Below, one piece after another: positions 1-62,159 of a stretch of DNA of 64,000 nucleotides. Position numbers and translations under genes: made by a program. Positions within the stretch are counted from its first letter, which is position 1. The number at the start of each line of letters is the position of its first letter. The DNA is from an uncultured Candidatus Saccharibacteria bacterium (GTDB lineage: Bacteria; Patescibacteriota; Minisyncoccia; UBA6257; UBA9933), in the NCBI GenBank assembly GCA_964453135.1, contig CAYVOL010000003.1, positions 33,976 through 97,975 of the forward strand, written 5' to 3'. The notes below the pieces were generated by a model. It saw only the letters and a list, made by a program, of their open reading frames with translations, had not been told where the DNA came from and did no database searches.

Positions 1-180
1 CCCAAAATTATTATCCCCGTTTTTTACAAAGTGCCGGGTTTGAAACGGCCGGCGGAAGATTTAAAAATTTTTGCCGACGAGTTCAATCACGGAGAAGCGG
101 AGCAGTTGGAAAAACTCACTGTCAAAAAAAGAGATTTAGCTTCCGCGAAAACTATGCAGTTAAAGACATTTAAGTTTTAA
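1..180 (+). CDS. 3' end of an upstream gene (partial, unknown function)
   Basis: Frame 1 is open from the window edge to a TAA at 178-180. The translation ...IIPVFYKVPGLKRPAEDLKIFADEFNHGEAEQLEKL... has no recognisable motif. Confidence 0.3.
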   Translation, partial: PKIIIPVFYKVPGLKRPAEDLKIFADEFNHGEAEQLEKLTVKKRDLASAKTMQLKTFKF

Positions 181-267
181 TTTTTCACACGATTGTCATT
201 ATTGAGCATAGCGAGGAATTTATGTTGTTCAGGATGACGAAGGGAGGATCAGAAAAGTTTTTAAATA

Positions 268-609
268 ATGGAATTTTTCAAAGAACAATTAAAGAGAATT
301 CAAAATTCCGATGATGGAGAAAAGAAAAAATGGTTAATTATTCTCAGCGGGATTTCCATGGCAATAATAATAACGGCTTGGATTTTTTATATGAATATCT
401 TTGTGTTTCAGGCTAATAATCCTAACGAAGAAAGCGGAACTAAACTGGAATCGGTTAATGTTGAATTTTGGCCCGTGTTTAAAGCCGGAATGAAAACGAT
501 CGCTCGTGATGTCAGCGGAAAAATAGGCTTCGGTGTTTCGGAAATTTTGTTCAGATTTTCCAAAATTATCGGCGGACAGAAATCTATTGAGATAAAAAAC
601 AGCGAATAG
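268..609 (+). CDS. small hypothetical membrane protein
   Basis: 113-aa ORF with one hydrophobic TM segment (WLIILSGISMAIIITAWIFYM). No family motif recognised. Confidence 0.4.
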   Translation: MEFFKEQLKRIQNSDDGEKKKWLIILSGISMAIIITAWIFYMNIFVFQANNPNEESGTKLESVNVEFWPVFKAGMKTIARDVSGKIGFGVSEILFRFSKIIGGQKSIEIKNSE

Positions 610-628
610 TTTGTAAGGTTAATCCACG

Positions 629-3091
629 ATGAATAGCAAAGAAAAAATTAAAAATGAGGGATTGCCCGAGCGCAAGGCGGGAGTAGAAAGGCGGGAAATA
701 TCCGATGAGCTGAAAGAATCTTATTTGGAATACGCGATGTCGGTTATTGTTTCGCGCGCCTTGCCGGACGTGCGTGACGGATTAAAGCCGGTGCAGCGGA
801 GGATTTTATGGGCAATGTGGGAAACCGGACTAAAAGCCGGAACAAAATTCAGGAAATCAGCCGCGGTGGTGGGCGAGACTTTGAAATCGTACCATCCGCA
901 CGGCGATATCGCGGTTTACGACGCTTTAGCGAGAATGACGCAGGATTTTTCCCTGCGCTATCCTTTGATTGACGGGCAGGGCAACTGGGGATCTATTGAC
1001 GGAGACAATCAGGCGGCGATGCGGTACACGGAATGCAGAATGTCTAAGATTTCCGAGGAGCTGATGTATGACATTGAAAAAGAAACTGTTGACTGGCAGC
1101 CTAATTACGACGCTACTACCGATGAGCCGAGAGTTTTGCCCGCTAAGCTACCTAACCTTTTAATCAACGGCGCTTCGGGCATTGCCGTCGGCATGGCCAC
1201 CAATATCCCGCCTCACAATTTAAGCGAGGTGATTGAGGCAACAACGCATTTAATAGAGCATCCCAAATCTTCCACCGAAGATTTGCTGAATTTCATCAAA
1301 GGCCCTGATTTCCCGACCGGCGGAATTATCTACGATAAAAAAGCGATTTTGGAAGCGTACGCCACCGGGCGGGGCAGCGTTACCACCCGGGCGGTTTCGG
1401 AAATTCAGGAAAGAAAAAACGGGCAATACAACATTGTTATCACCGAAATTCCTTATCAAGTGAATAAAGCGGAAATGATTGCCAAAATGGCCCAGCTGGC
1501 GCAGGAGAAAAAAATAGAAGGCATCCGCGACTTGCGCGACGAAAGCGACCGCGAAGGATTGCGCATCGTTGTTGAGTTGAAAAGCGACGCTTCAGCTCAA
1601 AAAATACTTAACCAGCTTTACAAGCATACCGACTTACAGAAGAATTTTAACTTTAATATGATCGCGTTGACTTCCGGAGGTATTCAGCCCCAGCTTTTGT
1701 CGCTGAAAGAAATTCTGGAATTTCACGTTGAGCATCGCAAAGAAGTGGTGCGGCGCCGGGCGGAGTTTGAACTGAAAAAAGCGAAAGAAAGGGCGCATAT
1801 TTTGGAAGGATTAGCCAAGGCGCTTTCTGTTATTGACCAGATAATCGCCACTATTAAAAAATCGCGCGACCGCGAAGAGGCCCGTTTGAATTTGATGAAG
1901 AATTTTTCGCTTACCGAAATTCAAGCCAACGCCATTTTAGATATGAAGCTGGCGACTTTGGCGGCTTTGGAAAGGGAGAAAATAGAAGAAGAACTGGCGG
2001 AGAAAAAACAGCTTATTAAAGAATTGGAAATTTTGCTGAAGAGTCCGGAAAAAATTTTGAAAGTCGTCAAAGACGAACTTTTGGAATTGAAAAATAAATT
2101 TGGCGATGAAAGAAAAACGAAAGTGGTGGCCGGAGGGATCAAGGAATTTAAAGAAGAGGATTTAGTGCCGGAAGAAGAAACCATCATCACTATGTCGCAA
2201 AGGGGTTATATTAAAAGAGTGCCGCCGTCTATTTTTAAGGCGCAGAAAAGAGGGGGAAAGGGGCTGATTGGTTCGGATATCAACGAAGAAGACGCCTTGC
2301 TTCATTTTATTTCCGCCAATACCCATGACAACATTTTATTTTTTACCGACCAGGGGAAAGTTTTCCAGACCAAGGTTTACGAAATTCCGGCTGCTAGCCG
2401 CACCTCCAAGGGGAAAATAATCCAGAATTTTTTGGATATTCCTCCGGAAGAAAAAATCAGCGCCGTTATTTCTTATGGCAATACTTCTTCCCGAGACGGC
2501 GCTTATTTGGTAATGGCCACCAGAAACGGCACTATCAAGAAAACTTCCTTGGAAGATTTTGCCAATATCCGGCGTACCGGCATTATCGCCATTAACCTCC
2601 AGAAAGGGGATGCTTTGAAAGGGGCGAAGTTATCGGGCGGCGCGGATGAAATTTTAATCACCACAGCCAGAGGGCAATCAGTGCGTTTTAAGGAAAATCA
2701 ATTAAAATCTTTAGGGCGAAGCGCCGCCGGAGTACGCGCCATTAAACTAAAATCCGGAGATTCAGTGGCGGGATTTGATATAATAAATAAGATGAAAAAT
2801 TTATTGATAATCACGGAAAACGGGTTTGCCAAGCAAACTCCATTGAAAGAATACCGTTTGCAAAGAAGAGGAGGATCGGGGATAAAAACTGCTAAAATTA
2901 CGGCCAAGACCGGGCTGATTGCCGCGGCGCGCGCCATCTCAGACGAGGAAGAGATATTGGCTATTTCTGTCAAAGGACAAATCATCCGCACAACCCTTTC
3001 TTCCGTGCGCACTGCGGGCAGAGCCACCAGCGGAGTGAAAATAATGAAACTGAATTCAGGAGACAAAATCGCCGGAATAGCCGTGTTGTAG
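629..3091 (+). CDS. gyrA: DNA gyrase subunit A
   Basis: 820 aa. The N-terminal breakage-reunion domain has the conserved [18 protein letters not shown] and HPHGD motifs and the active-site Tyr context AAMRYTE. The C-terminus carries repeated beta-pinwheel blades. Confidence 0.95.
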
Positions 3092-3151
3092 ATTGATCCG
3101 GAATTTTGAAACGTGGAACTTGAAATTTGAAATTTCAATATTGAAATCTTT

Positions 3152-4435
3152 ATGAATTTCACTAAATCGCAAAGCGTTATTATTTTAATCGGCGTTGCCG
3201 TTGTTTTGTTTTTCATTTTGGGGCTTTTGGGAATTATTCCTGTTTTTAAGACACCGCAGGACCGCAAGCCGGTTCAAGAAATCAGTCTTTCCATTTGGGG
3301 AATTGACGATAAATCTTTTTTTGAAGGAGTTTTGGATAAATTTAACCAATCTAACAGAAATATATCCATAAGCTACCGGTCTTTTGACGAGGCTTCTTAC
3401 GAGAACGCTCTCTTAAACGCCTTAGCGACCGGACAAGGGCCGGATATTTTTATGTTTCACCGCAGTTGGCTAAAAAAACACGGCGACAAAGTAGCCATAC
3501 CGTCAGCCACTCAGATTTCTTTGCCTGTTTTTCGCCAGCTTTTCCCCGATATTGCGGAAAGAGATTTTGTTTCCGACGGGAAAATTTATGCCCTGCCTTT
3601 GTATTTAGACACGGTGGCGATGTTTTACAACAAGGATATTTTTAATAATAAGGCCATCGCGGTTTTGCCGAAAACCTGGGACGATTTCCGTCTTTTAATT
3701 CCCTATTTGACCGAATACGACGTTAACCATCAGATTGTTAAATCCGCCGCCGCTGTCGGCGGGTCGGGAAAATCAATCAGCAAAGTCAGCGACCTTTTAA
3801 GTGCCCTGATGATTCAAAGCGGTTCGTCCATAGCGGATAGTTCGCGGATAAATAATTTTGACGCTCCGGCTGTTAAGGCGTTTGATTTTTATCTTCAATT
3901 CGCCAACGCCGGAAATGCTTACTACACTTGGAATGACGGGCTGGGCAATTCTCTGGATTCTTTTTCTGCCGCGAAAACCGCCGTAATTTTCAACTACGCC
4001 CGTTCTTTGGCGGATATTAAACGGAAAAATCCTTTTCTTAATTTTGCCGTTGCTCACTTGCCGCAATTTAATCCTTCCCAGCCGAAAAATTACGCCGACT
4101 ATTGGGGGTTGGCGGTGTCTAAACAAAGTCTTCATCCCGAGGAAGCGTGGAATTTTGCCATTGACCTTACTACCAACGCCAATACTAACTCAATGTATTT
4201 ACAGTCCAGCGGTTTGCCGCCGGCTTTAAGGACTTTGATCAATCAATACCAAAACGATGCTAATTTGAGTGTTTTCAGCCGGCAAGCGCTAAGCGCTTAC
4301 GCCATTTCCTATTCCGATAAAAATAAATTTGATTCCGTTATCTCCGATATGATAGAAGCTGTGCTGACCGGCAAGGCGAGCCAATCAGACGCCCTGGATC
4401 AAGCCCGGTTGAAATTAGCCGCCGGGGTTCAGTAA
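3152..4435 (+). CDS. membrane-anchored extracellular solute-binding protein family-1-like protein
   Basis: N-terminal TM anchor followed by a roughly 390-aa periplasmic-binding-protein-like region (PDIFMFHRSWL..., LYLDTVAMFYNKDIF). No cognate ABC permease or ATPase lies nearby. Confidence 0.5.
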   Translation: MNFTKSQSVIILIGVAVVLFFILGLLGIIPVFKTPQDRKPVQEISLSIWGIDDKSFFEGVLDKFNQSNRNISISYRSFDEASYENALLNALATGQGPDIFMFHRSWLKKHGDKVAIPSATQISLPVFRQLFPDIAERDFVSDGKIYALPLYLDTVAMFYNKDIFNNKAIAVLPKTWDDFRLLIPYLTEYDVNHQIVKSAAAVGGSGKSISKVSDLLSALMIQSGSSIADSSRINNFDAPAVKAFDFYLQFANAGNAYYTWNDGLGNSLDSFSAAKTAVIFNYARSLADIKRKNPFLNFAVAHLPQFNPSQPKNYADYWGLAVSKQSLHPEEAWNFAIDLTTNANTNSMYLQSSGLPPALRTLINQYQNDANLSVFSRQALSAYAISYSDKNKFDSVISDMIEAVLTGKASQSDALDQARLKLAAGVQ

Positions 4436-7513: not shown

Positions 7514-7972
7514 ATGCATAAAATTTTGCGCATGGGGTTCACTTTGGTGGAAATTCTTATTGTTTTGGGAGTGATCGCTGTTCTGGCTTCGTTTACCGGT
7601 TTGAATCTGGTGGGCATTTATCACCAGCGGAATTTAAACAATTATTCTTTGAAAATTGTTTATATTTTGCGGGCGGCGCGTGACAAGTCTATTAATCAGG
7701 AAAACGCCAGCGGGTGGGGCGTCCATTTTGATAATTCTTCCAGCAGCTTTGCTTTATTCCAGGGGAGCAGTTATAATTCAGGAATAGTTTATCAATATAT
7801 TAGGTTGAGTTCCGATGTTCAATTTGTCGCTCCGGCTTCCGGTCAAGATATTGTCTTCGCCAAAATTACCGGTTTGCCTAGCTCCACTTCTTCCGTTATA
7901 ATTTCTTTAGTTAATGATGCTAATACTTCCAGTACCATCACTATTAATTCCAACGGAGAAACAAGCAATTAA
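7514..7972 (+). CDS. type IV pilin/pseudopilin (prepilin-type N-terminal cleavage/methylation domain)
   Basis: Class III signal MHKILRMG|FTLVEILIVLGVIAVLA with Glu at +5. The ORF track opens at 7463 and 7514 is the first ATG giving a short leader. Confidence 0.7.
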   Translation: MHKILRMGFTLVEILIVLGVIAVLASFTGLNLVGIYHQRNLNNYSLKIVYILRAARDKSINQENASGWGVHFDNSSSSFALFQGSSYNSGIVYQYIRLSSDVQFVAPASGQDIVFAKITGLPSSTSSVIISLVNDANTSSTITINSNGETSN

Positions 7973-9498: not shown

Positions 9499-10083
9499 AT
9501 GATTTTCGGGCAACCTGATACAAGATACAAGCCGCGAAGGGCGCGGGGCTTTACCCTGATAGAGATGCTGGTTACTTTTTCCGTGATTGCCATTTTGTCC
9601 GGCGTGGTTATTCTTTACAACAACGCGGGGCGAGAACAATTAGAATTGTTTCAGGCGCAAAATCAGGTAGCAAGTGTTTTGAATCAAGCCAAGTCGTTTA
9701 CCCTGCAGTTTTATAATGGGGATTCCCGGCGGGACTGCGGCTATGGAGTCCATTTTGACGCCTCGGGAAATTCCTATTTTATTTTCAAAAGCAAAAAAAC
9801 TATTTCAACGGAAAATTGTATGGATTTGAGCCGGCCGGACGCTTACGACCAGACAAGAGACGATGATTTAAGCAAAAAATACAAATTTTCCCTGCCGTCC
9901 TCTTTGCAGTTTGACTCTGCGGGATTTATTTCCGATGTCGTTTTTATTTATCCCAGAGTTAATACCGTTATTATCCGGGGAGGAGTAGAAATAGACGAGG
10001 GGAAGATTACATTAATCAGCAAAGACGGGGCGTATAATAAAGTTGTGGGAATTAATAAAATTGGGCAAGTGTCGGCGCAGTAA
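9499..10083 (+). CDS. pseudopilin / minor pilin (prepilin-type)
   Basis: Leader is ...RRARG|FTLIEMLVTFSVIAILSGV. Confidence 0.7.
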   Translation: MIFGQPDTRYKPRRARGFTLIEMLVTFSVIAILSGVVILYNNAGREQLELFQAQNQVASVLNQAKSFTLQFYNGDSRRDCGYGVHFDASGNSYFIFKSKKTISTENCMDLSRPDAYDQTRDDDLSKKYKFSLPSSLQFDSAGFISDVVFIYPRVNTVIIRGGVEIDEGKITLISKDGAYNKVVGINKIGQVSAQ

Positions 10084-10689: not shown

Positions 10690-11250
10690 ATGAAAAAAAA
10701 TCTACAACCCAAAGCTCAAAGCTCAAAGCTCAAAGCTAGTCCGAGAGGTTTTTCCATAGTGGAACTTATAATGGCCACGGCTTTGTTTGTTATTATTCTT
10801 TCTATTATAGTCAGCATTTATTTGCGTTCTTTAGAGACGCAAAAAGCCACCCTCCATCTGATAGGAGCCAATGACAATCTGGTTTTAGCAGTGGAAGAAA
10901 TAGCGCGCGACATAAGGAACGGCACGGATTTTAACGAAGGCGACCCGAATTGTTCCAATAACGGCTTTGGCTCGGGATTGGAGTTTACTATTTATACGGG
11001 AGAAAAATTCTGTTATCGTTTTAACGGCTCCGACGCAATTGAAAAAGGAGTTTTTAATACATCAACCGGCAACTTCGATTTTCTAAAAATTACTTCCGAC
11101 GATATTCAAATCAGCGATTTCAAGATACAGAAGATTTCAGGGTTTTCCGTGCCGCGGGTCGTTGTTTTTTTCGCCGTGTCGTCCAAGAACGGCGTTTTGC
11201 GGGGAGTAAAGACTTACATTCAAACCACAGTCAGCGCGAGAAACATCTAA
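10690..11250 (+). CDS. pseudopilin / minor pilin (prepilin-type)
   Basis: Leader is MKKNLQPKAQSSKLKASPRG|FSIVELIMATALFVIILSII. The leader is encoded in part by a 7-nt tandem array (caaagct x4). Confidence 0.7.
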   Translation: MKKNLQPKAQSSKLKASPRGFSIVELIMATALFVIILSIIVSIYLRSLETQKATLHLIGANDNLVLAVEEIARDIRNGTDFNEGDPNCSNNGFGSGLEFTIYTGEKFCYRFNGSDAIEKGVFNTSTGNFDFLKITSDDIQISDFKIQKISGFSVPRVVVFFAVSSKNGVLRGVKTYIQTTVSARNI

Positions 11251-11332: not shown

Positions 11333-11776
11333 ATGACTAATTATTTACTGCAAAACCTAATAAAACGTTATACGTTATATGTTATACGTTATACGGACAA
11401 GAGGGGGCAGTTGATGATTTTAACGGTTTTGCTTTTGGGCGGGGTTATTATCGGCGTTACTTCCGTGGTAAGTTCATTGATTGTGTATAAAGTCCGTCAG
11501 GCAACCGACGTGGCTGATTCGGCCAAGGCCATTTTCTCCGCGGACGCTGGCCGGGAATTTGAGCTTTATCGCGCCAAAACGGGGTTAGGCGTGCCTTGCC
11601 CTTCTTTCTCCAACGGAGCGAGTTTTCATACCGAGGTAACATACGATGATTCTTCCGGCTTGCTCACTCTTTTTTCCAAAGGAAGCGGAATTAACAACAA
11701 CCGCATTTGGCACGAATTTTTCGCCTCTTCCACTATCGCCACTTCCAGCTATCCCATTAATAAAGATTGCCAATAA
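11333..11776 (+). CDS. hypothetical membrane protein, possibly a GspK/PilX-like minor pilin lacking Glu5
   Basis: The sequence ...DKRG|QLMILTVLLLGGVIIGVTSVV has a Gly before a hydrophobic helix but no Glu5. The start is ambiguous: the ORF opens at 11267, with ATGs at 11324, 11333 and 11414. A 7-nt x4 array (acgttat) lies in the putative leader region. Confidence 0.35.
   Translation: MTNYLLQNLIKRYTLYVIRYTDKRGQLMILTVLLLGGVIIGVTSVVSSLIVYKVRQATDVADSAKAIFSADAGREFELYRAKTGLGVPCPSFSNGASFHTEVTYDDSSGLLTLFSKGSGINNNRIWHEFFASSTIATSSYPINKDCQ
11365..11396 (+). repeat. heptanucleotide tandem repeat (acgttat x4) in the 5' region of a pilin-like ORF
   Basis: Direct reading of acgttat acgttat atgttat acgttat. 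Confidence 0.8.
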
Positions 11777-15487: not shown

Positions 15488-18079
15488 TTGTTTTTGTTAT
15501 TTAATATATTCAAGTGTTATTCAATGATTTACAACCATCAGAAAATTGAAAAGAAGTGGCAAGCGTTTTGGGAGAAGAGCGGAATTTATAGAATTAAGAA
15601 AAACAGAAATAAAAAGAAATTTTATGTTCTGGATATGTTTCCTTATCCGTCCGGCGATGGGCTCCATGTGGGGCATCCCCGCGGCTACATTGCCACTGAT
15701 GTGGCGGCGCGTTTTAAAACAATGAAGGGGTATGAGGTTTTACATCCTATGGGCTGGGACGCTTTCGGGCTTCCGGCCGAAAATTTCGCCTTAAAAAACA
15801 AAATTCATCCGCGATTGGCTGTTGCTAAAAATATCAAAAGGTTTAAAAATCAGCTTAAAATGTTCGGTTTTACTTATGACTGGAGCCGCGAGATAAACAC
15901 CACGGATGAAAAATATTATAAATGGACGCAATGGATTTTTCTTCAAATGTTTCACGCCGGTTTGGCTTACGAATCTTTTGAGCCGATTAATTGGTGTCCT
16001 TCGTGCAAGACCGGTTTGGCCAATGAAGACTTGGAAGACGGACGCTGTGAGCGTTGCGGCAGTATTGTGGAAAAAAAGCCGTTAAGGCAATGGGTTTTGA
16101 AAATGACCGCTTACGCCGAACGCCTGCTTAAAGATTTGAAATTTCTTGATTGGCCACTTTCTATTGTTGAGCAGCAGAAAAACTGGATAGGAAAATCGGA
16201 GGGAGCGCTCGTAGAATTCAAGATTCAAGATTCAAGATTCAAGATTGATGTATTTACCACGCGGGTTGATACGATTTTCGGATGCACTTATGTGGTGGTG
16301 GCGCCGGAACACGAGGTTATTAAGAATTTAACATTTAGAATTAAGAATTTCGGGGAAGTAGAGAGATATATTGGGGAAGCGAAGAAAAAATCTGATTTGC
16401 AGAGAACTGATTTGGCCAAAGAAAAAACCGGAGTTGAATTGAAGGGCGTGGAAGCGATTAATCCGTTTAACGGCGAAGCGGTGCCTGTTTTTGTCGCGGA
16501 TTACGTTTTGGCGGATTATGGAACCGGCGCGGTAATGGCAGTACCGGCGCATGACAAACGTGATTACGATTTTGCTCTAAAATACGGTTTATCAATTAAA
16601 CGGGTAATTGTTTCAAATAATACACAAGTTCAGAATGATAATTCCAAATCACAAAATTTAAAACAAGCTTTTGAAGATGACGGGATTTTGGTTGATTCGG
16701 GAGATTTCACCGGTTTGATTTCGGCTAGGGCGCGGCAAGAAATGGCAAAGTGGCTGAAAAAAAATAAATTGGGGGAAGAAAAGACAAATTATAAAATGCG
16801 CGATTGGGTTTTCAGCCGCCAAAGATATTGGGGAGAGCCTATTCCGCTAATTTTTTGTCCAGCGTGCAAAGAATCAATCCAAGATCCAAGATCCAAGATC
16901 CAAGATTCAAGATTCAGTCAGGGCGAATTGTTAAACCCCGGCTGGATAGGGGTGGAAGAAAAAAATTTACCCGTAAAACTGCCGGAGGTGAAATCTTATG
17001 AGCCATCCGGCACGGGCGAATCTCCTTTGGTAAATATTAAAAAATGGGTGAATGTGAAATGTCCTAAATGTGGCGGAAAAGCCAAACGGGAAACCAATAC
17101 TATGCCGCAGTGGGCCGGTTCCTGCTGGTATTATTTGCGTTTCATTGATCCGAGAAATAATAAGGCATTGGTTGATAAAAAAAAGGAAAAAGAATGGATG
17201 CCGGTTGATTTATACGTGGGCGGGGTGGAACACGCCACCCGCCATTTGCTCTATGCCCGTTTTTGGCACAAATTTTTATACGATATCGGAGCGGTTTCCG
17301 CCAAAGAACCTTTCAAAAAGCTCGTCAATCAAGGGTTGATTTTGGCGGCTGACGGCCGCAAGATGTCCAAACGATGGGGAAATGTGATAAATCCGGACGA
17401 TATGATTGAGCAATTCGGCGCGGACTCTTTGCGTTTGTACGAAATGTTTTTAGGTCCTTTTGCGCAGCATATTGCCTGGAATATGGACGGGATAAGGGGA
17501 ATGAAAAGATTTTTGGACAGAATTTATAAAACAATATCAAAACCTAAAAGTCAAAGCCCGAAACTCAAAGTTAAAAATCAAAAATTAGAGAGATTACTGC
17601 ATCAAACTATTAAAAAAGTGACGGAAGATATCGAAGGTTTTAGGTTTAACACGGCGATTTCTTCTTTAATGATTTTATTTAACGAAATGGAACGAGAAAA
17701 CAGCGGATTAGAAATAAAACATTGCGAGTTATTTCTAAAATTACTGGCGCCGTTTGCTCCGCATATCGCAGAGGAAATATGGCAAAATTTGCGACGCAAT
17801 AATAGCGGTAAAAACGCGCGCCGCACCGTTTTCCAAAGCATTCATTCAGAGTTATGGCCCGGATATAACAAGAAATTGATTGAAGAAGAATTATTTGAAC
17901 TGGTGGTGCAAATTAATGGTAAAGTAAAAGACAAAGTTAAAGCCCATGCCGGTATTTCCCAAAAAGAAGCGGAGGAAATGGTTTTTGCTTTGCCTAAAAT
18001 CAGAGAGCTGTTAAAAGGAAAATCCGCGCGGAAAATTATTTTTGTTCCCGGAAGGTTGATCAATCTCGTTATCGCGTAA
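15488..18079 (+). CDS. leuS: leucyl-tRNA synthetase
   Basis: HIGH motif (HVGHPRGY) and KMSKS motif (KMSKRWGN), with a CP1 editing region. 863 aa. It contains two in-frame 7-nt tandem arrays. Confidence 0.95.
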   Translation: MFLLFNIFKCYSMIYNHQKIEKKWQAFWEKSGIYRIKKNRNKKKFYVLDMFPYPSGDGLHVGHPRGYIATDVAARFKTMKGYEVLHPMGWDAFGLPAENFALKNKIHPRLAVAKNIKRFKNQLKMFGFTYDWSREINTTDEKYYKWTQWIFLQMFHAGLAYESFEPINWCPSCKTGLANEDLEDGRCERCGSIVEKKPLRQWVLKMTAYAERLLKDLKFLDWPLSIVEQQKNWIGKSEGALVEFKIQDSRFKIDVFTTRVDTIFGCTYVVVAPEHEVIKNLTFRIKNFGEVERYIGEAKKKSDLQRTDLAKEKTGVELKGVEAINPFNGEAVPVFVADYVLADYGTGAVMAVPAHDKRDYDFALKYGLSIKRVIVSNNTQVQNDNSKSQNLKQAFEDDGILVDSGDFTGLISARARQEMAKWLKKNKLGEEKTNYKMRDWVFSRQRYWGEPIPLIFCPACKESIQDPRSKIQDSRFSQGELLNPGWIGVEEKNLPVKLPEVKSYEPSGTGESPLVNIKKWVNVKCPKCGGKAKRETNTMPQWAGSCWYYLRFIDPRNNKALVDKKKEKEWMPVDLYVGGVEHATRHLLYARFWHKFLYDIGAVSAKEPFKKLVNQGLILAADGRKMSKRWGNVINPDDMIEQFGADSLRLYEMFLGPFAQHIAWNMDGIRGMKRFLDRIYKTISKPKSQSPKLKVKNQKLERLLHQTIKKVTEDIEGFRFNTAISSLMILFNEMERENSGLEIKHCELFLKLLAPFAPHIAEEIWQNLRRNNSGKNARRTVFQSIHSELWPGYNKKLIEEELFELVVQINGKVKDKVKAHAGISQKEAEEMVFALPKIRELLKGKSARKIIFVPGRLINLVIA
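16217..16246 (+). repeat. heptanucleotide tandem array (caagatt x4) inside leuS
   Basis: The sequence gaa ttcaagattcaagattcaagattcaagatt gat encodes FKIQDSRFKID. Confidence 0.85.
16879..16915 (+). repeat. heptanucleotide tandem array (ccaagat x4 + tcaagat) inside leuS
   Basis: The sequence ccaagatccaagatccaagatccaagattcaagattcag encodes IQDPRSKIQDSRF. Confidence 0.85.
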
Positions 18080-21141: not shown

Positions 21142-21251
21142 AGGAGAAAATCTTAAAAACATAAAACTTGAACCTTGGAACTTGGAACTCGTCTCAATTA
21201 TTTATCCCCAGTTTCAAGATTTATATTTTATGTTCTGTGATTATTACTCTA

Positions 21252-22297: not shown

Positions 22298-22364
22298 TGA
22301 TTAATTATAGCAACATATCTTAAACTTACAAAGGCAGATGAAATAGTTTATAGAGTTAATGTAA

Positions 22365-22576
22365 GAAATCCGAGCGTTGTTTACATTTCGGAATATTGAC
22401 CACTGGCGTTCCCGACCTTACTGTCATTCTGAGTCCGCCAGCTGGCGGACGAAGAATCTTACGGAGATCCTTCGCCCCGCCACAGCAGGGCTCAGGATGA
22501 CAAAAACGGTCAGGATGACCAAAATGTTCAGGATGACAATAAAAAACTACGACGAAAAGCGTAAATAACGCTATGA
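22365..22576 (+). repeat. dispersed ~200-nt structured element, copy 1 (candidate ncRNA / MITE-like)
   Basis: Shares gaaatccgagcgttgtttacatt...tgtcattctgagtccgccagctggcgg...gatccttcg...cccgcc...ggctcaggatgacaa...gtaaataacgct with 26668-26878 and 56461-56655. Confidence 0.6.
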
Positions 22577-22673
22577 TTTTACATACAAAGTTTGTAAAGT
22601 TGTAAGGTCTATATAGTTTGCAAGGTGTATAAGATTTATAAATATCAATTTAATGCAATGATATCAATGAAAG

Positions 22674-23552: not shown

Positions 23553-23554
23553 GA

Positions 23555-23640
23555 AACTTGAATCTTGAAACTTGAAAATTGAATCGCGCAACTTGAATCT
23601 TGGAACTTAGATCTTGAATCCTGATACTTGGCACTTAATA
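23555..23640 (+). repeat. 7-nt-period tandem array (NNCTTGA units) between convergent genes
   Basis: Units read aacttga atcttga aacttga aaattga ... aacttga atcttgg aacttag atcttga atcctga tacttgg. Confidence 0.8.
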
Positions 23641-26067: not shown

Positions 26068-26601
26068 ATGGATTATCAAAATCATCAAGCCGCGGCAGAG
26101 GCGATGCTTTTTGTCTACGGGGAGCCGCTGGAGATTAAAAGGATGGCCGGTCTTTTGAGCATCAGCGAAGAAGAAGCAAAAGCCGCTGTTGCGAACCTGG
26201 GGAAAAGCTTGGAAGATTCTCAGAGGGGATTAACCCTGCTTTTTAATAACAACCGTGTTCAACTGGCGACCAAAAAGGAATTTCATTCTTTGGCGGAAGC
26301 ATTGATTAAAAGCGAATTTGAAGAAAATTTGACTCCGGCGGCTTTGGAAACTTTATCAGTTGTTGTTTACCTTGGTCCGGTTTCCCGACCCAAAATTGAT
26401 TACATCAGGGGAGTGAATTCATCTTATACTGTCCGCAATCTGATGTTAAGGGGGCTGATTGAGCGCGTTTCGGACGGCAAAAGCGGAAACGCTTTTTTGT
26501 ATCAGGCAAGTTTTGATTTGCTGAAACATTTGGGAATTTCCCGGATTTCCGAATTGCCGGATTACGGGAAATATAAAGAGTTGGCGGAAAAAACTTCCTG
26601 A
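26068..26601 (+). CDS. scpB: segregation and condensation protein B
   Basis: Two winged-helix repeats with the conserved AEAMLFVYGEPL and PKIDYIRGVNSSYTVRNLMLRGLIERV blocks. Confidence 0.8.
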   Translation: MDYQNHQAAAEAMLFVYGEPLEIKRMAGLLSISEEEAKAAVANLGKSLEDSQRGLTLLFNNNRVQLATKKEFHSLAEALIKSEFEENLTPAALETLSVVVYLGPVSRPKIDYIRGVNSSYTVRNLMLRGLIERVSDGKSGNAFLYQASFDLLKHLGISRISELPDYGKYKELAEKTS

Positions 26602-26667
26602 TGTTCGTTGTAGCGCGGCATAGGGATGAGAGGCAAGGATATTGCCGGGGTATGACTTGGTTTGCAA

Positions 26668-26878
26668 GAAATCCGAGCGTTGTTTACATTTTGGAATGTT
26701 GACTATTGGGGTGTGCCCGACGGCCCCACTCCTGCCATTCTGATCCGCCAGCCGGCGGAGAAGAATCTTAAGAGATCCTTCGTCCGCCCCGCCATGGCGG
26801 GGCGGGACTCAGGATGACAATAAAAACGTTTAGGATGACAATTAAAAAACAGCGATGAAAAGTGTAAATAATGCTATG
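26668..26878 (+). repeat. dispersed ~200-nt structured element, copy 2
   Basis: See copy 1. It has the same termini and internal palindromes (ccgccagccggcgg; ccccgccatggcgggg). Confidence 0.6.
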
Positions 26879-26921
26879 AAATCTTACACATAGTTTATTA
26901 CTAATCGTTACATTGTATTAA

Positions 26922-35422: not shown

Positions 35423-36223
35423 ATGGGCCAAAAATTAGGACAGCATTTTTTGATAAATAAAGAGAAACTGCAAAAAATTGTTGGCGCTTTGGAATTAGAG
35501 CAGGGGGATTTGGTTTTTGAAATCGGTCCCGGGCATGGGGAGTTGACAGAAGCCATCAAGTATCAAGTGTCAGGTGTCAATATTATTGCGATTGAAAAAG
35601 ACCGGGAATTGGCAGCGGCTCTAAAAGGAAAATATAAAGATGATTTACGGGTAGAAATTGTTGAAGGAGACGCATTGAAAATTTTGTCGGAATTACTCCA
35701 AAGGCATAATCTAAAAGATAAAAGCTATAAAATTGTTGGCAACATTCCTTACTATATTACCGGACATTTATTGCGGATTTTGGGCGAGTTAAAGAACAAG
35801 CCAGCGAGAATTGTTTTGACCATTCAAAAAGAAGTGGCGGAAAGAATATGCGCGGCGCCTCCGAGAATGAATTTATTGGCGGCCAGCGTTCAGTTTTGGG
35901 CTGAGGCGGAAATAATAGATTACATTAGCCGTAAAGATTTTTTACCGGCGCCCGAAGTTGACAGCGCTATTATTGTTTTGCGCCCGCGGCGCGCGGCTTT
36001 CACGCAAATTGGCGACGAACATTATTATCGGTTCATAAAAATTTTATTCCAGCATCCGAGAAAAACTTTATTGAATAATCTCAAATCTCAAATCTCAAAT
36101 CTCAAAAATAAGGAAGAAATTATTAAGGAATTAAAAAAAATTGGAATAAATCCGCAGGATCGGCCGCAGGATTTAGGTCTGGATAATATTATTGAGCTGG
36201 CAAAGAGTTTTGGTTATAATTAG
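35423..36223 (+). CDS. rsmA: 16S rRNA (adenine1518/1519-N6)-dimethyltransferase
   Basis: The GQHFL start, the SAM-binding EIGPGHGELT and the NIPY motif are present. It contains an in-frame aatctca x4 heptamer array (36083-36110). Confidence 0.9.
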   Translation: MGQKLGQHFLINKEKLQKIVGALELEQGDLVFEIGPGHGELTEAIKYQVSGVNIIAIEKDRELAAALKGKYKDDLRVEIVEGDALKILSELLQRHNLKDKSYKIVGNIPYYITGHLLRILGELKNKPARIVLTIQKEVAERICAAPPRMNLLAASVQFWAEAEIIDYISRKDFLPAPEVDSAIIVLRPRRAAFTQIGDEHYYRFIKILFQHPRKTLLNNLKSQISNLKNKEEIIKELKKIGINPQDRPQDLGLDNIIELAKSFGYN

Positions 36224-51856: not shown

Positions 51857-52726
51857 ATGCCCGAGTTGCCGGAAGTTCAAACAATTATTGATGATTTGAA
51901 TAAGAAAATTAAAGGCGAAATTATCGCTGATTTTTGGAGCGACTGGAAAAAATCCCTTAAAGCGATTTCTCCGGAGCAATTTAGGCGCGCTGTAAAGAAT
52001 AAAAAAATTTTAAGAGCGCGCCGCAAGGGAAAAAATATTTTTATTGACTTGAGCGGCGGGAAAACTATTTATCTTCACCTTAAAATGACCGGCCATCTTT
52101 TAGTTAAGCCGGCCGGTAAAATTTCGGATTTGGAAAAAAAATATTTTGCCGAAAAAGTTAATCAGTATATTCACCATATTTTTTATTTTAGAAGCGGGAA
52201 AATCATGACCTTTTCCGATTTAAGAAAATTCGGGAAAATTATTTTAGTGCCTACTTCACAGGCGGAGGATTTGCCGGAAATAAAAAATTTGGGGGAAGAC
52301 GTTTTATCTCCAAGTTTTACATTGGAGAAGTTTAAAAATCTTTTGGCGAAAAAAAGAAAACTTTCTCTGGTTGTTTTTTTAGCGGACCAGCAAATTTTAA
52401 GCGGCATCGGCAACATATACCGCAGCGAAATTTTATTTGAAGCCGGCGTTTTGCCATGGAGGAAAGCCGGCGAACTGGAAGAAGAAGAAATTGGAGATGT
52501 TTATCGTGCCATTGGAAAAATTTTGAAAAAAGCGATAAGATTGCGGGGCACCTCCGACAGCGATTATCGGGACACCTCCGGCACTCCCGGAAAATTCCAA
52601 AATGTTTTGAGGGTTTACCGCAGAGAAGGCGAGAAATGTTTGGTATGTAAGAAGGAAATTAGGAGGGTAAAAATCGGAGCGAGAAGCGTCTTTTATTGCC
52701 CGCGATGCCAGAATCGTGAATCCTGA
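51857..52726 (+). CDS. mutM: formamidopyrimidine-DNA glycosylase
   Basis: It starts MPELPEV, giving the catalytic Pro2 after Met removal. It has the H2TH region and a C-terminal zinc finger CLVCKKEI...CPRCQ. The start was moved from 51836 to the Fpg-type ATG. Confidence 0.85.
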   Translation: MPELPEVQTIIDDLNKKIKGEIIADFWSDWKKSLKAISPEQFRRAVKNKKILRARRKGKNIFIDLSGGKTIYLHLKMTGHLLVKPAGKISDLEKKYFAEKVNQYIHHIFYFRSGKIMTFSDLRKFGKIILVPTSQAEDLPEIKNLGEDVLSPSFTLEKFKNLLAKKRKLSLVVFLADQQILSGIGNIYRSEILFEAGVLPWRKAGELEEEEIGDVYRAIGKILKKAIRLRGTSDSDYRDTSGTPGKFQNVLRVYRREGEKCLVCKKEIRRVKIGARSVFYCPRCQNRES

Positions 52727-52772
52727 ATCGTAAATCTTGAATCGTGAATCGTGAATTCTAACCATTCAATCA

Positions 52773-54714: not shown

Positions 54715-55752
54715 ATGCTCAATTATTTTCGCAAAGATATCGGGGTTGATTTGGGAACCGCCAATTCTCTTTTGTATGTCAAAGAGCGGGGCATTGTTAT
54801 TAACGAGCCGTCCATCGCGGCGGTGAATAATAAAACCGGGCAAATCGCGGCTATAGGCGAAGACGCCAAAAAAATGCTGGGCCGCACGCCGTCCCATATT
54901 TCGGTAATCAGGCCATTGGTTAACGGAGTTATTTCCGATTTTGAAATGACGCAGGAAATGCTCCGCCATTTTTTCAATAAAGCAAGCCAGCGCCACATTC
55001 TCAAATACTACCGCGCTGTTATCGGCGTTCCTCCTAATTTGACCGAGGTGGAAAGAAAATCAGTGGAAGATGCCGTAATTAACGCCGGCGCTTCGCGGGC
55101 TTATTTGGTGGAAGAGCCCATTGCCGCGGCTTTGGGCGCCCGTCTTCCTATTAACGAAGCGGTAGCGACGATGATTGTGGACATCGGCGGAGGCACAACT
55201 GATATTGCCGTTATTTCCATGAACGGAACAGTTTTCAGCAAGAGCTTGAAGATCGCCGGCGATAAGTTTAATGACGACATCATCCGTTTTGTCAGGGATG
55301 AATTTAAGTTGTTAATAGGAGAGCCCACGGCGGAAGAATTAAAAAAAACCATCGGCTCCGCTATTGCCTTGGAGGAAAAACTGGATTTAGCCGCCAGAGG
55401 AAGAGATATGTCTACGGGTTTGCCCAGGGAAATAGTGGTGAGGGGCGCTCAAGTGCGGGCGGCTTTGAGCCGTTCTTTGAAATTAATTTTAGAATCCATC
55501 AGAGAGGTGGTGGAAAAAACTCCTCCGGAGTTGGTGGGCGACATTTATCGGCAGGGGATTTATGTCTGCGGCGGAGGAAGTTTATTAAAAGGAGTGGGAA
55601 CTTTGATTGAAAGAGAAATTTCTGTGCCGGTTATTTTAATTGAAGATCCTTTGACTGCGGTGGCGCGCGGCACGGGAATTATCGCCGAAGATATAGATAA
55701 GCATTCCCAATTATTCACCATTCCCTTAAAGCCGATGGATATTAACGAGTAA
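54715..55752 (+). CDS. mreB: rod-shape-determining actin homolog MreB
   Basis: Actin-fold phosphate-1 motif GVDLGTANS, phosphate-2 motif VDIGGGTTD and an adenosine motif. Confidence 0.9.
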   Translation: MLNYFRKDIGVDLGTANSLLYVKERGIVINEPSIAAVNNKTGQIAAIGEDAKKMLGRTPSHISVIRPLVNGVISDFEMTQEMLRHFFNKASQRHILKYYRAVIGVPPNLTEVERKSVEDAVINAGASRAYLVEEPIAAALGARLPINEAVATMIVDIGGGTTDIAVISMNGTVFSKSLKIAGDKFNDDIIRFVRDEFKLLIGEPTAEELKKTIGSAIALEEKLDLAARGRDMSTGLPREIVVRGAQVRAALSRSLKLILESIREVVEKTPPELVGDIYRQGIYVCGGGSLLKGVGTLIEREISVPVILIEDPLTAVARGTGIIAEDIDKHSQLFTIPLKPMDINE

Positions 55753-56460: not shown

Positions 56461-56655
56461 TGCCGCAGACATAGCGAAGCGAAGAATCCATCCTGTCATT
56501 CTGAATCCGCCAGCTGGCGGAGAAGAATCTCGTATTTATGCGATTGCGAATATGAGAGATCCTTCGTCCCCCGCCATGGCGGGGGACGAAGGATGACAAT
56601 TAAAACAGGATGACCATAAAAAACAACTATAAAAAGTGTAAATAATGCCTGGATT
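56461..56655 (+). repeat. dispersed ~200-nt structured element, copy 3
   Basis: It shares tgtcattctgaatccgccagctggcgg...gatccttcgtcccccgccatggcggggg...aggatgacaa...gtgtaaataatgc with copies 1 and 2. Confidence 0.6.
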
Positions 56656-56702
56656 TCTTATAGATTATAAATTAAAGATTTTTTATTCTTTTTCAATAAT
56701 AA

Positions 56703-57188
56703 ATGGGCGAAGATATTAAAAAACATAAACAACGCAATAAAATAGCAGGGTTTACTTTGGTGGAAATTTTGCTGACTTTGGCGATTATCGGCGTTTTAAC
56801 CGCGGCGGTTTTGATAATGATTAATCCTGCCCAGCAGCTGGGCGTCGCGCGCAATAATCAGCGTTCCACAAATATCAATGTTATTATCAACGCCATTGGC
56901 CAGAATATGGGAGACAATAAGGGAAGCTTCGGCTGCGTTATCGGAGATATTCCCACTTCTTCCGTAAAAATGGCAAGCGGCGCGGGAAATTACGATATTG
57001 CCCAGTGTTTGGTTGGGCCGAATTATTTGCCCAACCTTCCTTTTGACCCGACGGCGCCGGGCGCTCATTATTCTTCCAGCGCTGATTACGACACCGGTTA
57101 TTATGTTTCCAAAAATGCTTCCACCAGCCGCGTAACTATTACCGCCCCTTACGCTGAGGCGGGACAGACAATTTCCATCACGCGATAG
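56703..57188 (+). CDS. type IV pilin (prepilin-type), distal to the main pilus operon
   Basis: Leader is MGEDIKKHKQRNKIAG|FTLVEILLTLAIIGVLTAAVLIM. Confidence 0.7.
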   Translation: MGEDIKKHKQRNKIAGFTLVEILLTLAIIGVLTAAVLIMINPAQQLGVARNNQRSTNINVIINAIGQNMGDNKGSFGCVIGDIPTSSVKMASGAGNYDIAQCLVGPNYLPNLPFDPTAPGAHYSSSADYDTGYYVSKNASTSRVTITAPYAEAGQTISITR

Positions 57189-61151: not shown

Positions 61152-62159
61152 ATGTTTATTCGTAAAATCGGCATTGATTTGGGAACAGCCAATACTGTTG
61201 TTTTTCTTCCGGATAAAGGTTTTGTGATAAACGAGCCGACCATCGTGGCTTTGAGCGCGCCCGACAATTCCGTGATGGCGGTAGGAAAAGAAGCAAAGGA
61301 AATGATCGGACGCACCCCCAGCGACATTAAAGCTTATCAGCCGTTAAGAGACGGAGTGATTGCGGATTATTATATCACTAAGGCCATGCTGGGGTATTTT
61401 ATTAAAAAAACATTGGGCATGTTTAATTTTTTTAAGCCCGATGTGGTGATTTCCGTGCCAGCCGGCATTACGCAGACCGAGCGCCGGGCTGTTGTTAACG
61501 CCGCCAAAGAAGCTGGCGCTAAAGCCGCGCATATCGTGCGGGAGCCGATTTTAGCCGCTCTGGGAGCCGGCATTCCCATTAACGCCCATTCGGGCAATAT
61601 GATTATCAACATCGGCGGCGGGACTTGCGAAGCCGCGGTAATTTCTTTGGGAGGAATTGTTTCTTGGTCCAGTCTGCGGGTGGCGGGCAATAAATTTGAT
61701 CAAGCCATCGCCGATTATATAAAGAAAAAATATTCTTTGGCTATCGGCCAGCAAACCGCGGAAAATATTAAAATTAAAATCGGCGCCGCTTTGCCGTCCA
61801 AAGAGAAAAGAACCATGGAAGTGAGAGGACGCGATTTGATTTCCGGTTTGCCCAAAGATATCGCTATTAGCTCCAATGAAATAGCCGAAGCCCTTCACGC
61901 GCATTTGCTGGATATTGCCGCGGCTATCCAGAATGTTTTTAACGAAACGCCGCCGGAACTGGTGGCGGACGTTATGGAAAAAGGAATAATACTTTCCGGC
62001 GGAGGAGCGCAAATCGCCCACCTTCCGGAATTTTTCAAAAGAATGCTGGGCGTGAATGTCTATGTGGCGGAAGAGCCGCTGTTTTGCGTGGCGAAAGGGA
62101 CAGGTTTAATTCTTAATCACTTAAATCTTTACAAGAGGACTTTGTTGAATAAACGTTAA
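61152..62159 (+). CDS. second MreB-family actin homolog (Mbl/MreB paralog)
   Basis: The motifs GIDLGTANT and INIGGGTCE are present. It aligns over its full length with the MreB at 54715. Confidence 0.85.
   Translation: MFIRKIGIDLGTANTVVFLPDKGFVINEPTIVALSAPDNSVMAVGKEAKEMIGRTPSDIKAYQPLRDGVIADYYITKAMLGYFIKKTLGMFNFFKPDVVISVPAGITQTERRAVVNAAKEAGAKAAHIVREPILAALGAGIPINAHSGNMIINIGGGTCEAAVISLGGIVSWSSLRVAGNKFDQAIADYIKKKYSLAIGQQTAENIKIKIGAALPSKEKRTMEVRGRDLISGLPKDIAISSNEIAEALHAHLLDIAAAIQNVFNETPPELVADVMEKGIILSGGGAQIAHLPEFFKRMLGVNVYVAEEPLFCVAKGTGLILNHLNLYKRTLLNKR

Follow-up and report, generated by a model that had tools for sequence, protein, structure and literature searches.

Dispersed intergenic repeats in a Candidatus Saccharibacteria contig as probable head-to-head dimers of Ssn-related DNA hairpins

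Nucleases of the Ssn family cut single-stranded DNA (ssDNA) beside NTS hairpins of the form "GTCATTCC...GGAATC", and hairpins of a related kind very probably make up the three dispersed elements analyzed here, which lie in a 64,000-nt stretch (the window, whose first nucleotide is position 1) of contig CAYVOL010000003.1 from an uncultured Candidatus Saccharibacteria bacterium. Both binding and cutting of the Neisseria NTS hairpin CGTCATTCCCGCGMAVGCGGGAATCYRG by SsnA, a 94-amino-acid single-domain GIY-YIG protein (CDD cd10448), require ssDNA and are confined to one strand; the cut falls upstream of the hairpin at a distance of a few nucleotides, and RNA is not bound (Chenal et al., Nat Commun 2025, PMC11893778). 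Cleavage requires the GTC that precedes the NTS palindrome, and the C behind the palindrome is most important for binding. The Neisseria system modulates transformation, its NTS-ssnA-NTS architecture was likened to an insertion sequence (IS), and Ssn homologs across phyla are flanked by 'Ssn-related motifs' (SRM) (PMC11893778). The second closely related description is that of the 'CGTC-tagged' repetitive extragenic palindromes (REPs), which were catalogued in five phyla and whose stems start with A-T pairs and are followed by a short tail (Di Nocera et al., BMC Genomics 2013, PMC3733652). Among them head-to-head dimers with the tags on the outside predominate, often as heterodimers, and some are nested in longer palindromes; outer palindromes were reported for dimers of both CGTC and GTAG REPs. 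No dedicated transposase was found for CGTC REPs, and the genes of REP-associated tyrosine transposases (RAYTs) were never flanked by CGTC-type repeats. The dRS3 repeat corresponds to family CGTC-1, and the superfamily CGTC-1 to -4 also takes in the Rickettsia repeats RPE-4 and RPE-6 (PMC3733652).

The class is already described, its repeats in 2013 and its nuclease in 2025, and the window adds a further member in a genome resembling those of the candidate phyla radiation (CPR). The copies in the window are very probably gene-less head-to-head heterodimers of REP-like DNA hairpin modules that carry CGTC/TGTC tags and belong to the Ssn-related class. Sequence comparison of the three stretches aligned the copies, given as about 225-245 nt each, over approximately 210-245 nt and placed them at positions 22360-22585, 26663-26888 and 56473-56662. 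The original prediction, made from the sequence letters of the window, had located three dispersed intergenic copies at these sites, and its bounds were only slightly extended. Copy 1 lies between a gene for an HtrA-like protease (- strand) and a hypothetical gene (+ strand), copy 2 between scpB and a gene for a D-Ala-D-Ala carboxypeptidase (both + strand), and copy 3 between mreC and a pilin-like gene (both + strand). The unit of approximately 245 nt was copied as a whole to at least three intergenic sites of this genome. Motif searches of the window added a decayed fourth dimer (GTCATTATTGAGCATAGCGAGGAAT...GTTCAGGATGAC), also intergenic, at positions 195-238 of the + strand. The motif AGGATGAC occurs nine times in the window against 0.82 expected occurrences, and GTCATTCTGA with up to one mismatch is found 11 times against 2.6 expected; no shuffled sequence reached either count.

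Every copy is built around two inverted modules: on the + strand module A reads GTC-ATTCT-GA-(hairpin)-GA-AGAAT-C, and on the - strand module B reads GTC-ATCCT-GA-(hairpin)-GA-AGGAT-C. Minimum free energy folds of either strand contain an apparent outer stem, GTCATTCTGAG / CTCAGGATGAC, that closes three hairpins, and the outer stem GTCATTCTGA...TCAGGATGAC proposed in the original prediction is present in the copies. The arms of this stem differ at two positions, and the difference is constant from copy to copy (ATTCT versus ATCCT, AGAAT versus AGGAT); it is compensated inside each arm, as ATTCT/AGAAT of the left arm and ATCCT/AGGAT of the right arm each self-pair. Because the apparent mismatches are compensated within the arms, the unit consists of two inverted hairpin modules. 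A model of a single cloverleaf RNA was ruled out by the same compensation, together with the location of sense-type modules on opposite strands.

Folded as ssDNA of their own strand, five of the six modules adopt one architecture: the GTC is unpaired, a base stem of 5 bp leads through a 2x2 GA/GA internal loop into an inner stem of 6-12 bp with a 4-nt loop, and the 3' C is again unpaired. Module B of copy 3 is the exception, TC/GA pairing closing its GA/GA loop into a continuous 16-bp stem. All six modules are 34-45 nt long, with z scores of their ssDNA folds ranging from -3.2 to -8.3. Their base stems read AT(T/C)CT / AG(A/G)AT and the tail is a C followed by a T; every module ends with AGAAT-C or AGGAT-C, in which the C is unpaired, and five begin with GTC, module A of copy 2 having GCC instead. 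With the preceding base included, the + strand tags are TGTC, TGCC and TGTC and those of the - strand TGTC. The palindromes named in the original prediction were recovered, i.e. CCGCCAGC(T/C)GGCGG, CCCCGCCATGGCGGGG (degenerate in copy 1) and GAAGAATC...GATCCTTC. Of the two differences between copies that it had taken as compensatory, gagtcc/gatcc is a compensated gain or loss of a base pair, but cagctgg/cagccgg merely changes a loop. Downstream of module B follow one or two extra half-sites (TCAGGATGAC) with a spacing of 17-21 nt, and the predicted 3' tail contains three, two and two AGGATGAC units in copies 1, 2 and 3, respectively, and ends with AAAAG(Y)GTAAATAA(Y)GC. The flanks that copies 1 and 2 have in common at their 5' and 3' ends form a 25-nt outer inverted repeat, which within the window is found only at the three copies and whose left arm is missing from copy 3. 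The identical 5' sequence GAAATCCGAGCGTTGTTTACATT that had been noticed in copies 1 and 2 is present in both. Among 210 fetched loci (designated L below), the outer flanks had no match other than contigs of the source organism itself.

In copy 1, the left arm of the outer inverted repeat (TGTAAGAAATCCGAGCGTTGTTTAC, positions 22360-22384, + strand) pairs in the ssDNA centroid fold with the right arm (GTAAATAACGCTATGATTTTACA, 22561-22583, - strand). Module A (22423-22458, + strand; -10.4 kcal/mol, z -4.3) is composed of the GTC tag, the ATTCT/AGAAT stem, the GA/GA loop, a GTCCGCC/GGCGGAC inner stem with an AGCT loop, and the 3' C. Head-to-head with it and separated by a 7-nt spacer stands module B (22466-22501, - strand; GTC-ATCCT-GA-GCCCTGC..GCGGGGC-GA-AGGAT-C; -10.2 kcal/mol, z -3.9). 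The region 22508-22537 (- strand) holds two tandem half-sites, TCAGGATGAC at 22510-22519 and at 22528-22537 with an 18-nt period, which represent 5' halves of module B on the - strand. Copy 2 has outer arms at 26663-26687 (+ strand) and 26864-26888 (- strand), a module A with the mutated tag GCC, a TCCGCC/GGCGGA inner stem and an AGCC loop (26734-26767, + strand; -9.5 kcal/mol, z -3.6), a module B whose inner hairpin is long and GC-rich (CCGCCCCGCC ATGG GGCGGGGCGG; 26774-26818, - strand; -16.3 kcal/mol, z -4.2) and a single extra half-site (TTAGGATGAC, 26828-26839, - strand). Copy 3 starts with what is left of the 3' portion of a canonical module (AGCGAAGCGAAGAATCC, 56473-56489, + strand), located just upstream of its module A (56495-56529, + strand; -7.9 kcal/mol, z -3.2). 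A 28-nt spacer with a small hairpin of its own (56530-56557) leads to module B, the perfect 16-bp hairpin with TC/GA pairing in place of GA/GA (56558-56597, - strand; -20.9 kcal/mol, z -8.3), followed by a single extra half-site (CAGGATGAC, 56604-56614, - strand) and the right outer arm (56638-56662, - strand), 20 of whose 25 positions agree with the left arm of copy 1.

The likeness to SRM and NTS hairpins lies in the combination of an unpaired GTC, an unpaired C and, between them, a palindrome that starts AT(T/C)C. The module A stem ATTCT/AGAAT is a single base pair away from the NTS stem ATTCC/GGAAT, and all six modules fall within the SRM definition of an imperfect palindrome of 20-50 nt that forms an ssDNA hairpin. 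Like SRM, the window repeats are intergenic, multi-copy and oriented, and in other genomes this repeat type flanks or encloses genes for single-domain GIY-YIG proteins of approximately 92-94 amino acids that are homologs of the ssnA locus. Unlike the NTS hairpin of about 28 nt, the modules of 34-45 nt have a bipartite stem with a conserved GA/GA loop and a variable inner hairpin, and, unlike both SRM and NTS, the repeat type is mostly TGTC-tagged and is arranged in regular A/B heterodimers with tandem arrays of half-sites. Similar observations apply to the CGTC REPs, which are likewise short palindromic repeats with an unpaired tag ending in GTC, a stem that starts with A-T and T-A pairs and a tail whose first base is C. 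All window copies are head-to-head A/B heterodimers nested in a palindrome, with a hairpin-bearing spacer in copy 3; among CGTC REPs, known from several phyla, such dimers predominate, heterodimers are common, spacers can likewise form small hairpins and some dimer families have a longer palindrome around them. The first base of the tag differs (TGTC in the window against CGTC) whereas the GTC core is kept. The CGTC families have a continuous stem of 8-9 bp, a loop of 4-5 nt and a CCA tail; in contrast, the window class has a 5-bp stem, the GA/GA loop, an inner stem of 2-12 bp and a CT(N) tail, with GNA triloops common in the family and 4-nt loops in the window. CPR/Patescibacteria and most Firmicutes are outside the five phyla listed for CGTC REPs.

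Relatives of the dimer were collected by two scans. The first employed the pattern CATTCTGA-N58-88-AGGATGAC-N8-14-AGGATGAC, which contains the outer motifs only, on contigs representing one genome per species, and yielded at least 120 stretches from Nitrospirota, Chloroflexota, Bacillota, Bacteroidota, Acidobacteriota, Cyanobacteriota, Planctomycetota, Pseudomonadota, Omnitrophota, Patescibacteria and other phyla. The consensus of the 5' half of these matches is (GTCATTCTGAG-N~12)n GTCATTCT-GA-GCGAAGC-GA-AGAATCT, followed by a spacer of 4-60 nt and the 3' half, AGATCCT-TC-GCTTCGC-TC-AGGATGAC (A-N~10-CTCAGGATGAC)n. The second scan used the core of the window's module A (CCGCCAGCYGGCGGA.GAAGAATCT) and added 80 metagenome stretches of very different flanking composition, many of them singlet modules, to give 200 loci. 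Eight variants of the base stem are present in these loci and all of them are compensated: ATCCT/AGGAT (433 occurrences), ATTCT/AGAAT (359), ATTCC/GGAAT (36), ATTGC/GCAAT (25), ATGCT/AGCAT (16), ATGCC/GGCAT (15), ACCCT/AGGGT (15) and ATCCC/GGGAT (10), as opposed to 0-4 occurrences of two non-complementary control pairings. The GA...GA loop is kept in 80-84% of 580 distinct modules, and the inner stems are diverse in sequence yet paired, with at least 2 bp from their ends in 62% of cases against 7% of shuffles. Base stem and inner hairpin thus covary. The pattern of the stems is that of hairpin covariation and does not carry the signature of a cis-regulatory or trans-acting RNA. GNA triloops account for 232 of 419 loops, with GCGAAGC, GCGCAGC, GCGTAGC and ACGAAGT as examples. 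The sequence d(GCGNAGC) with its sheared G.A pair is an exceptionally stable DNA mini-hairpin, and GNA triloops and tandem G.A pairs are hallmarks of such structures. The base in front of GTC is T in 78% and C in 17% of the family (TGTC and CGTC), GTC itself being fixed by the construction of the scans. Where module B was unconstrained, 27 of 32 dimers are heterotypic, and 131 of 149 dimers are intergenic as judged by open reading frames (ORFs) as a proxy. A full-text literature search for the sequence strings of the repeat returned unrelated primer matches only.

Tandem arrays of half-sites are common in these loci and often occupy both flanks of a dimer, which suggests repeated local duplication beside the predicted nick site. 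One array in a metagenome-assembled genome (MAG) of the Syntrophomonadaceae (L006, positions 64-763) comprises approximately 30 tandem half-sites (GTCATCCTGGGGGCAACACCCCGT and GTCATTCTGAG variants) with a strict period of 24 nt; it is located directly upstream of one complete dimer, and an ssn gene lies 6.4 kb away. Two environmental contigs (L146, approximately positions 480-700, and L178, - strand) carry canonical Neisseria-type NTS modules (GTCATTCCCGTGAAAACGGGAATCC, GTCATTCCCGCGCAGGCGGGAATCC) and variants (GTCATCCCGGCCTATGAGCCGGGATCC) nested in or in tandem with modules of the window type. As both kinds of module share the same contigs, several specificities may coexist in one genome.

Gene linkage was analyzed by clustering 2,832 ORFs of at least 70 codons from the 120 genome loci of the first scan. 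Once housekeeping families and overlapping ORFs that are probably spurious had been set aside, a single family recurred, a protein of approximately 92 amino acids detected at six of the 120 loci, which contains a GIY-YIG domain (Pfam PF01541) and no other curated domain. NCBIfam holds no specific model for this nuclease, and a PDB search with it found only the distant UPF0213 GIY-YIG structure 1zg2 (E 0.005) and no Ssn structure. The position of the gene relative to the repeats was examined at nine loci (L006, L024, L067, L086, L100, L115, L197, L202 and L208). It lies inside the loop of the dimer in L067, where the order is GTCATTCTGAGCGCAGCGAAGAATCTT - gene - AAGATTCTTCGCTTCGCTCAGAATGAC, and also in L024 and L208; it stands between two dimers in L115 and L202 and directly abuts module A in L197. 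Seven of these nine genes belong to the 200 loci and entered the enrichment statistics; for all seven, a half-site lies no more than 65 nt from a gene end, against 17% of gene proxies at the same loci, and for five this is true of both ends, against a background of 1.4%. The ORF adjoining the ssn gene and dimers of L115 looks Cas2-like on our reading of its sequence.

A search for homologs of the nuclease returned 5,349 proteins at E <= 1e-5. The best 120 of these are 73-100% identical to the Syntrophomonadaceae query and carry the names of many Bacillota lineages and of one MAG labelled 'Patescibacteria group'. On the latter contig the neighboring genes, encoding SpoIIT and coenzyme A transferases, look Firmicute-like, and the bin may therefore be contaminated. 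The unusually high conservation across lineages, which includes a cyanobacterial plasmid copy with 68% identity, suggests frequent horizontal transfer of the family. A tblastn search of PLSDB matched two Neisseria gonorrhoeae records of 2.17 Mb at a single locus (44.7% identity, E 8e-18, 92% coverage), where CCGTCATTCCCGCTCAGGCGGGAATCCGG and CCGTCATTCCCGCACAGGCGGGAATCTAG follow the gene and an inverted copy precedes it, which is the NTS-ssnA-NTS architecture. Among cultured organisms, the repeat type of the window is exemplified by Planktothrix agardhii plasmid NZ_LR882964.1 (L202), whose gene is 67.8% identical and has A/B dimers and half-site arrays on both sides. In this locus (positions 1-3267) the ssn gene and its dimers are situated in a defence island, flanked by a type IIL MmeI-like restriction-modification gene on one side and by drmA, which encodes the DISARM helicase, on the other.

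Comparison with relatives of the source organism provided information on the history of copies 1 and 2. The window's ScpB has an exact counterpart among known sequences; its closest relatives are 66-71% identical, and the best named ones, Candidatus Wolfebacteria and other Patescibacteria, are approximately 55% identical, pointing to a CPR bacterium as the source. In two relatives the genes follow the order HtrA / hypothetical / Na-H exchanger / glycosylase ... ScpB / penicillin-binding protein (PBP) / glycosyltransferase, as in the window. The gap between the ScpB and PBP genes measures 16 nt in L205 and 0 nt in L206 and L207, in contrast to 332 nt in the window, where it contains copy 2. Similarly, the gap between the HtrA gene and the hypothetical gene is 82 nt in L207 and 376 nt, including copy 1, in the window. 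As syntenic relatives lack the element at both sites, copies 1 and 2 are lineage-specific gains, and such clean filled and empty sites in syntenic CPR genomes offer a natural test bed for the gain of repeats. Two independent short-read Logan contigs of the source organism (L203 3534-3698 and L204 750-914) carry the exact ScpB and correspond to approximately positions 26601-26765 of the window. Both stop 164 nt past the scpB stop codon, inside module A of copy 2, as would be expected of a repeat present at more genomic sites than the window shows.

Taken as a whole, the explanation that combines dimers of the SRM class with an Ssn-driven mechanism is likely. Replication, repair or DNA uptake would expose one strand or the other as ssDNA, and the module written on it would then fold. 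An Ssn protein, a small GIY-YIG nuclease with a single domain whose gene would lie at another place in the genome, would bind the hairpin and its 3' C and introduce a nick a few nucleotides 5' of the GTC tag. Nicking of this kind may drive how the repeats spread and persist, and it may modulate how incoming or replicating ssDNA recombines. By analogy with the literature on Ssn, the chance that the window elements function in this manner, with an enzyme encoded outside the window, is about even or slightly better. We infer that this genome has an Ssn enzyme acting on these modules, and the mode in which the copies were made is inferred alongside.

Several observations weigh against this explanation. 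The published SRM string HGTCWYN(0-2)YYVSBRHN(0-5)WNVSBRGN(0-2)RNCYNB matches none of the six modules and does not match the canonical GTCATTCTGAGCGAAGCGAAGAATC either, although it matches the NTS control; it leaves no room for a 5-bp stem, the GA/GA loop and an inner hairpin. The biochemistry of Ssn binding and cutting was established for Neisseria and Wolbachia pairs (PMC11893778), i.e. for repeat subtypes other than that of the window. No ssn gene was detected in the 64-kb window by tblastn or with a purpose-built Ssn profile, the best match of which had an E value of 0.48. Module A of copy 2 has GCC where cleavage needs GTC, and only three or four copies are visible in the window. Moreover, the Ssn model leaves the 25-nt outer inverted repeat and the approximately 60 nt of shared flanks unexplained and offers no account of how the repeats multiply, in Neisseria or elsewhere. 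A bolder version of the mechanism, which we regard as unlikely, would make the ~245-nt units active non-autonomous members of a transposon class whose sole enzyme is the 92-amino-acid GIY-YIG ssDNA nickase Ssn and whose autonomous form is A-ssn-B, with the nuclease gene in the hairpin loop. If this were true, gene-less A-B dimers with their outer palindrome would be MITE-like derivatives (MITE, miniature inverted-repeat transposable element), the half-site arrays would have been left by repeated cycles of nick and repair, and the class would have spread through ssDNA intermediates across nearly all bacterial phyla, the genome-reduced CPR included.

The original prediction had considered a non-autonomous mobile element, and this idea was broadly right: gene-carrying arrangements with ssn between the modules exist, and two of the copies are absent from syntenic relatives; a classical MITE bounded by terminal inverted repeats and target-site duplications was not recovered. 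In its classical form, the ~245-nt unit would be moved by a DDE-type transposase through the 25-nt outer arms, with the dimer as cargo or original target. The outer inverted repeat, TGTAAGAAATCCGAGCGTTGTTTAC / GTAAATAAYGC..TTACA, does delimit both ends of copies 1 and 2 and the right-hand end of copy 3, with no further occurrence in the window, and the entity that was duplicated and that is missing from relatives is the whole unit rather than the dimer alone. The elements also resemble bacterial MITEs such as Correia/NEMIS, RUP and ERIC in being small, non-coding, intergenic and multi-copy, with inverted repeats at their ends and presence or absence among relatives. Nevertheless, we consider this explanation, the main rival, rather improbable. 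No consistent target-site duplication was identified at the boundaries of the three copies, no transposase family recurred among the ORFs of the 120 genome loci listed, and a parent IS was not found in the window or the fetched loci. Outer palindromes of at least 10 nt surround 10.5% of dimers elsewhere against 1.5% of mismatched controls, with lineage-specific sequences and the published precedent for REP dimers (PMC3733652), and the outer flanks of the window copies are unmatched elsewhere in the 210 loci. Unlike in MITEs, the part conserved across phyla is the internal hairpin dimer and not the termini, and the linked gene encodes a 92-amino-acid nuclease and not a DDE transposase. Mobilization as a REPIN by a RAYT, an IS200/IS605-like Y1 transposase, is highly improbable, although the architecture is much the same: tagged hairpins form inverted doublets of two subtypes, comparable to the Y and Z REPs of bacterial interspersed mosaic elements, that fold into a long hairpin, are intergenic and multi-copy, favor convergent gene ends and are thought to act as ssDNA hairpins recognized by a dedicated and usually single-copy enzyme. 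REPINs are tagged GTAG and depend on an HUH Y1 transposase, in contrast to the (T/C)GTC tag and GIY-YIG nuclease of the window class; no Y1-transposase cluster recurred in the 120 loci listed, where the GIY-YIG gene recurs instead, and no RAYT is linked to the class, in line with the absence of CGTC-type repeats around RAYT genes (PMC3733652).

Explanations at the level of RNA fare no better against the preferred reading of Ssn-related DNA hairpins. A cis-acting 5' leader or promoter module for the downstream genes of the + strand was considered, as the three copies and the decayed one all lie upstream of co-oriented ORFs and the A/T-rich tail contains weak matches to -35 and -10 elements. Across the 149 dimers, the downstream gene is co-oriented in 51 cases and opposite in 62, i.e. 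without orientation bias, and convergent gene ends are favored over divergent ones (25 against 12). The promoter-like matches are not in excess (13 against 9.5 +/- 2.9 in shuffled sequences), in syntenic relatives the same gene pairs are expressed across gaps of 0-82 nt in which the element is absent, and the downstream genes are functionally unrelated, encoding a hypothetical protein, a D-Ala-D-Ala carboxypeptidase and a pilin-like protein. This role is accordingly very improbable. The original prediction had named as one hypothesis a small RNA (sRNA) family in which AGGAUGA units sponge CsrA/RsmA or ribosomes, which would act in trans, and the repeated GGA-containing units, reminiscent of CsrB/RsmZ-type sRNAs, and the strong predicted folds of both strands are compatible with it. 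Yet the - strand folds equally well, sense-type modules occupy both strands and an orientation bias is missing. In CsrB/RsmZ-type sponges the GGA is exposed in hairpin loops of a transcribed and terminated RNA, whereas here it resides in a DNA stem or half-site: AGGATGA combines the 3' strand of the base stem with the sequence complementary to the GTC tag. Conservation does not centre on GGA, because AGGAT changes in a compensated manner elsewhere (AGAAT, AGCAT, AGGGT, GGAAT), so that relatives show swaps to GAA, GCA, GGG and others. Rfam searches found nothing in the window at the gathering threshold, and for copy 1 with E values up to 10 they returned only a chance archaeal snoRNA match (14 bits against a gathering threshold of 64). 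The GNA triloops and tandem G.A pairs point to stable DNA mini-hairpins, and the cognate protein family, that of SsnA, binds ssDNA and not RNA (PMC11893778). We therefore regard an sRNA sponge as scarcely credible. A role as a terminator was ruled out, as no T-run follows the structure on either strand, and a resemblance to box C/D motifs (CUGA...GAUGA) was dismissed as coincidental in a bacterial DNA repeat.

The analysis removes a candidate for a new sRNA family and places the repeats in a class whose enzyme was characterized only in 2025. The subtype GTCATTCTGA...GAAGAATC / GATCCTTC...TCAGGATGAC was found in every major phylum sampled, and since the published string misses this widespread subtype, SRM censuses and the pairings of Ssn enzymes with repeats may be undercounted. 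Its sharp grammar of tag, covarying 5-bp stem, tandem G.A, GNA-loop inner hairpin and 3' C provides concrete substrates for work on specificity and mobility, for which the A/B heterodimers and the occasional location of the gene in their loop are further useful features. The general picture is unchanged by the finding.

Other features of the window were noted during the analysis. A search for tRNAs and transfer-messenger RNA in the window found none. Many short intergenic tandem arrays with a period of seven, each with its own heptamer, are distributed over the window, at 3101-3147 (GAAATTT), 10710-10737 (CAAAGCT), 11365-11395 (ACGTTAT), 16216-16246 (ATTCAAG), 16877-16913 (ATCCAAG), 21165-21189 (AACTTGG), 23553-23630 (GAAACTT, 11 units), 36077-36106 (AATCTCA), 52711-52756 (GAATCGT) and 62873-62925 (TCAAAAT). 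Similar period-7 arrays also flank elements in other CPR-like loci, for example L166, L168 and L190. Three pilin-like genes encode an N-terminal methylation motif (7535-7582, 9547-9594 and 56748-56795), and two MreB paralogues are present (54739-54826 and 61167-61254). The pilin-like trio and the MreB pair represent ordinary paralogy that is separate from the repeats.

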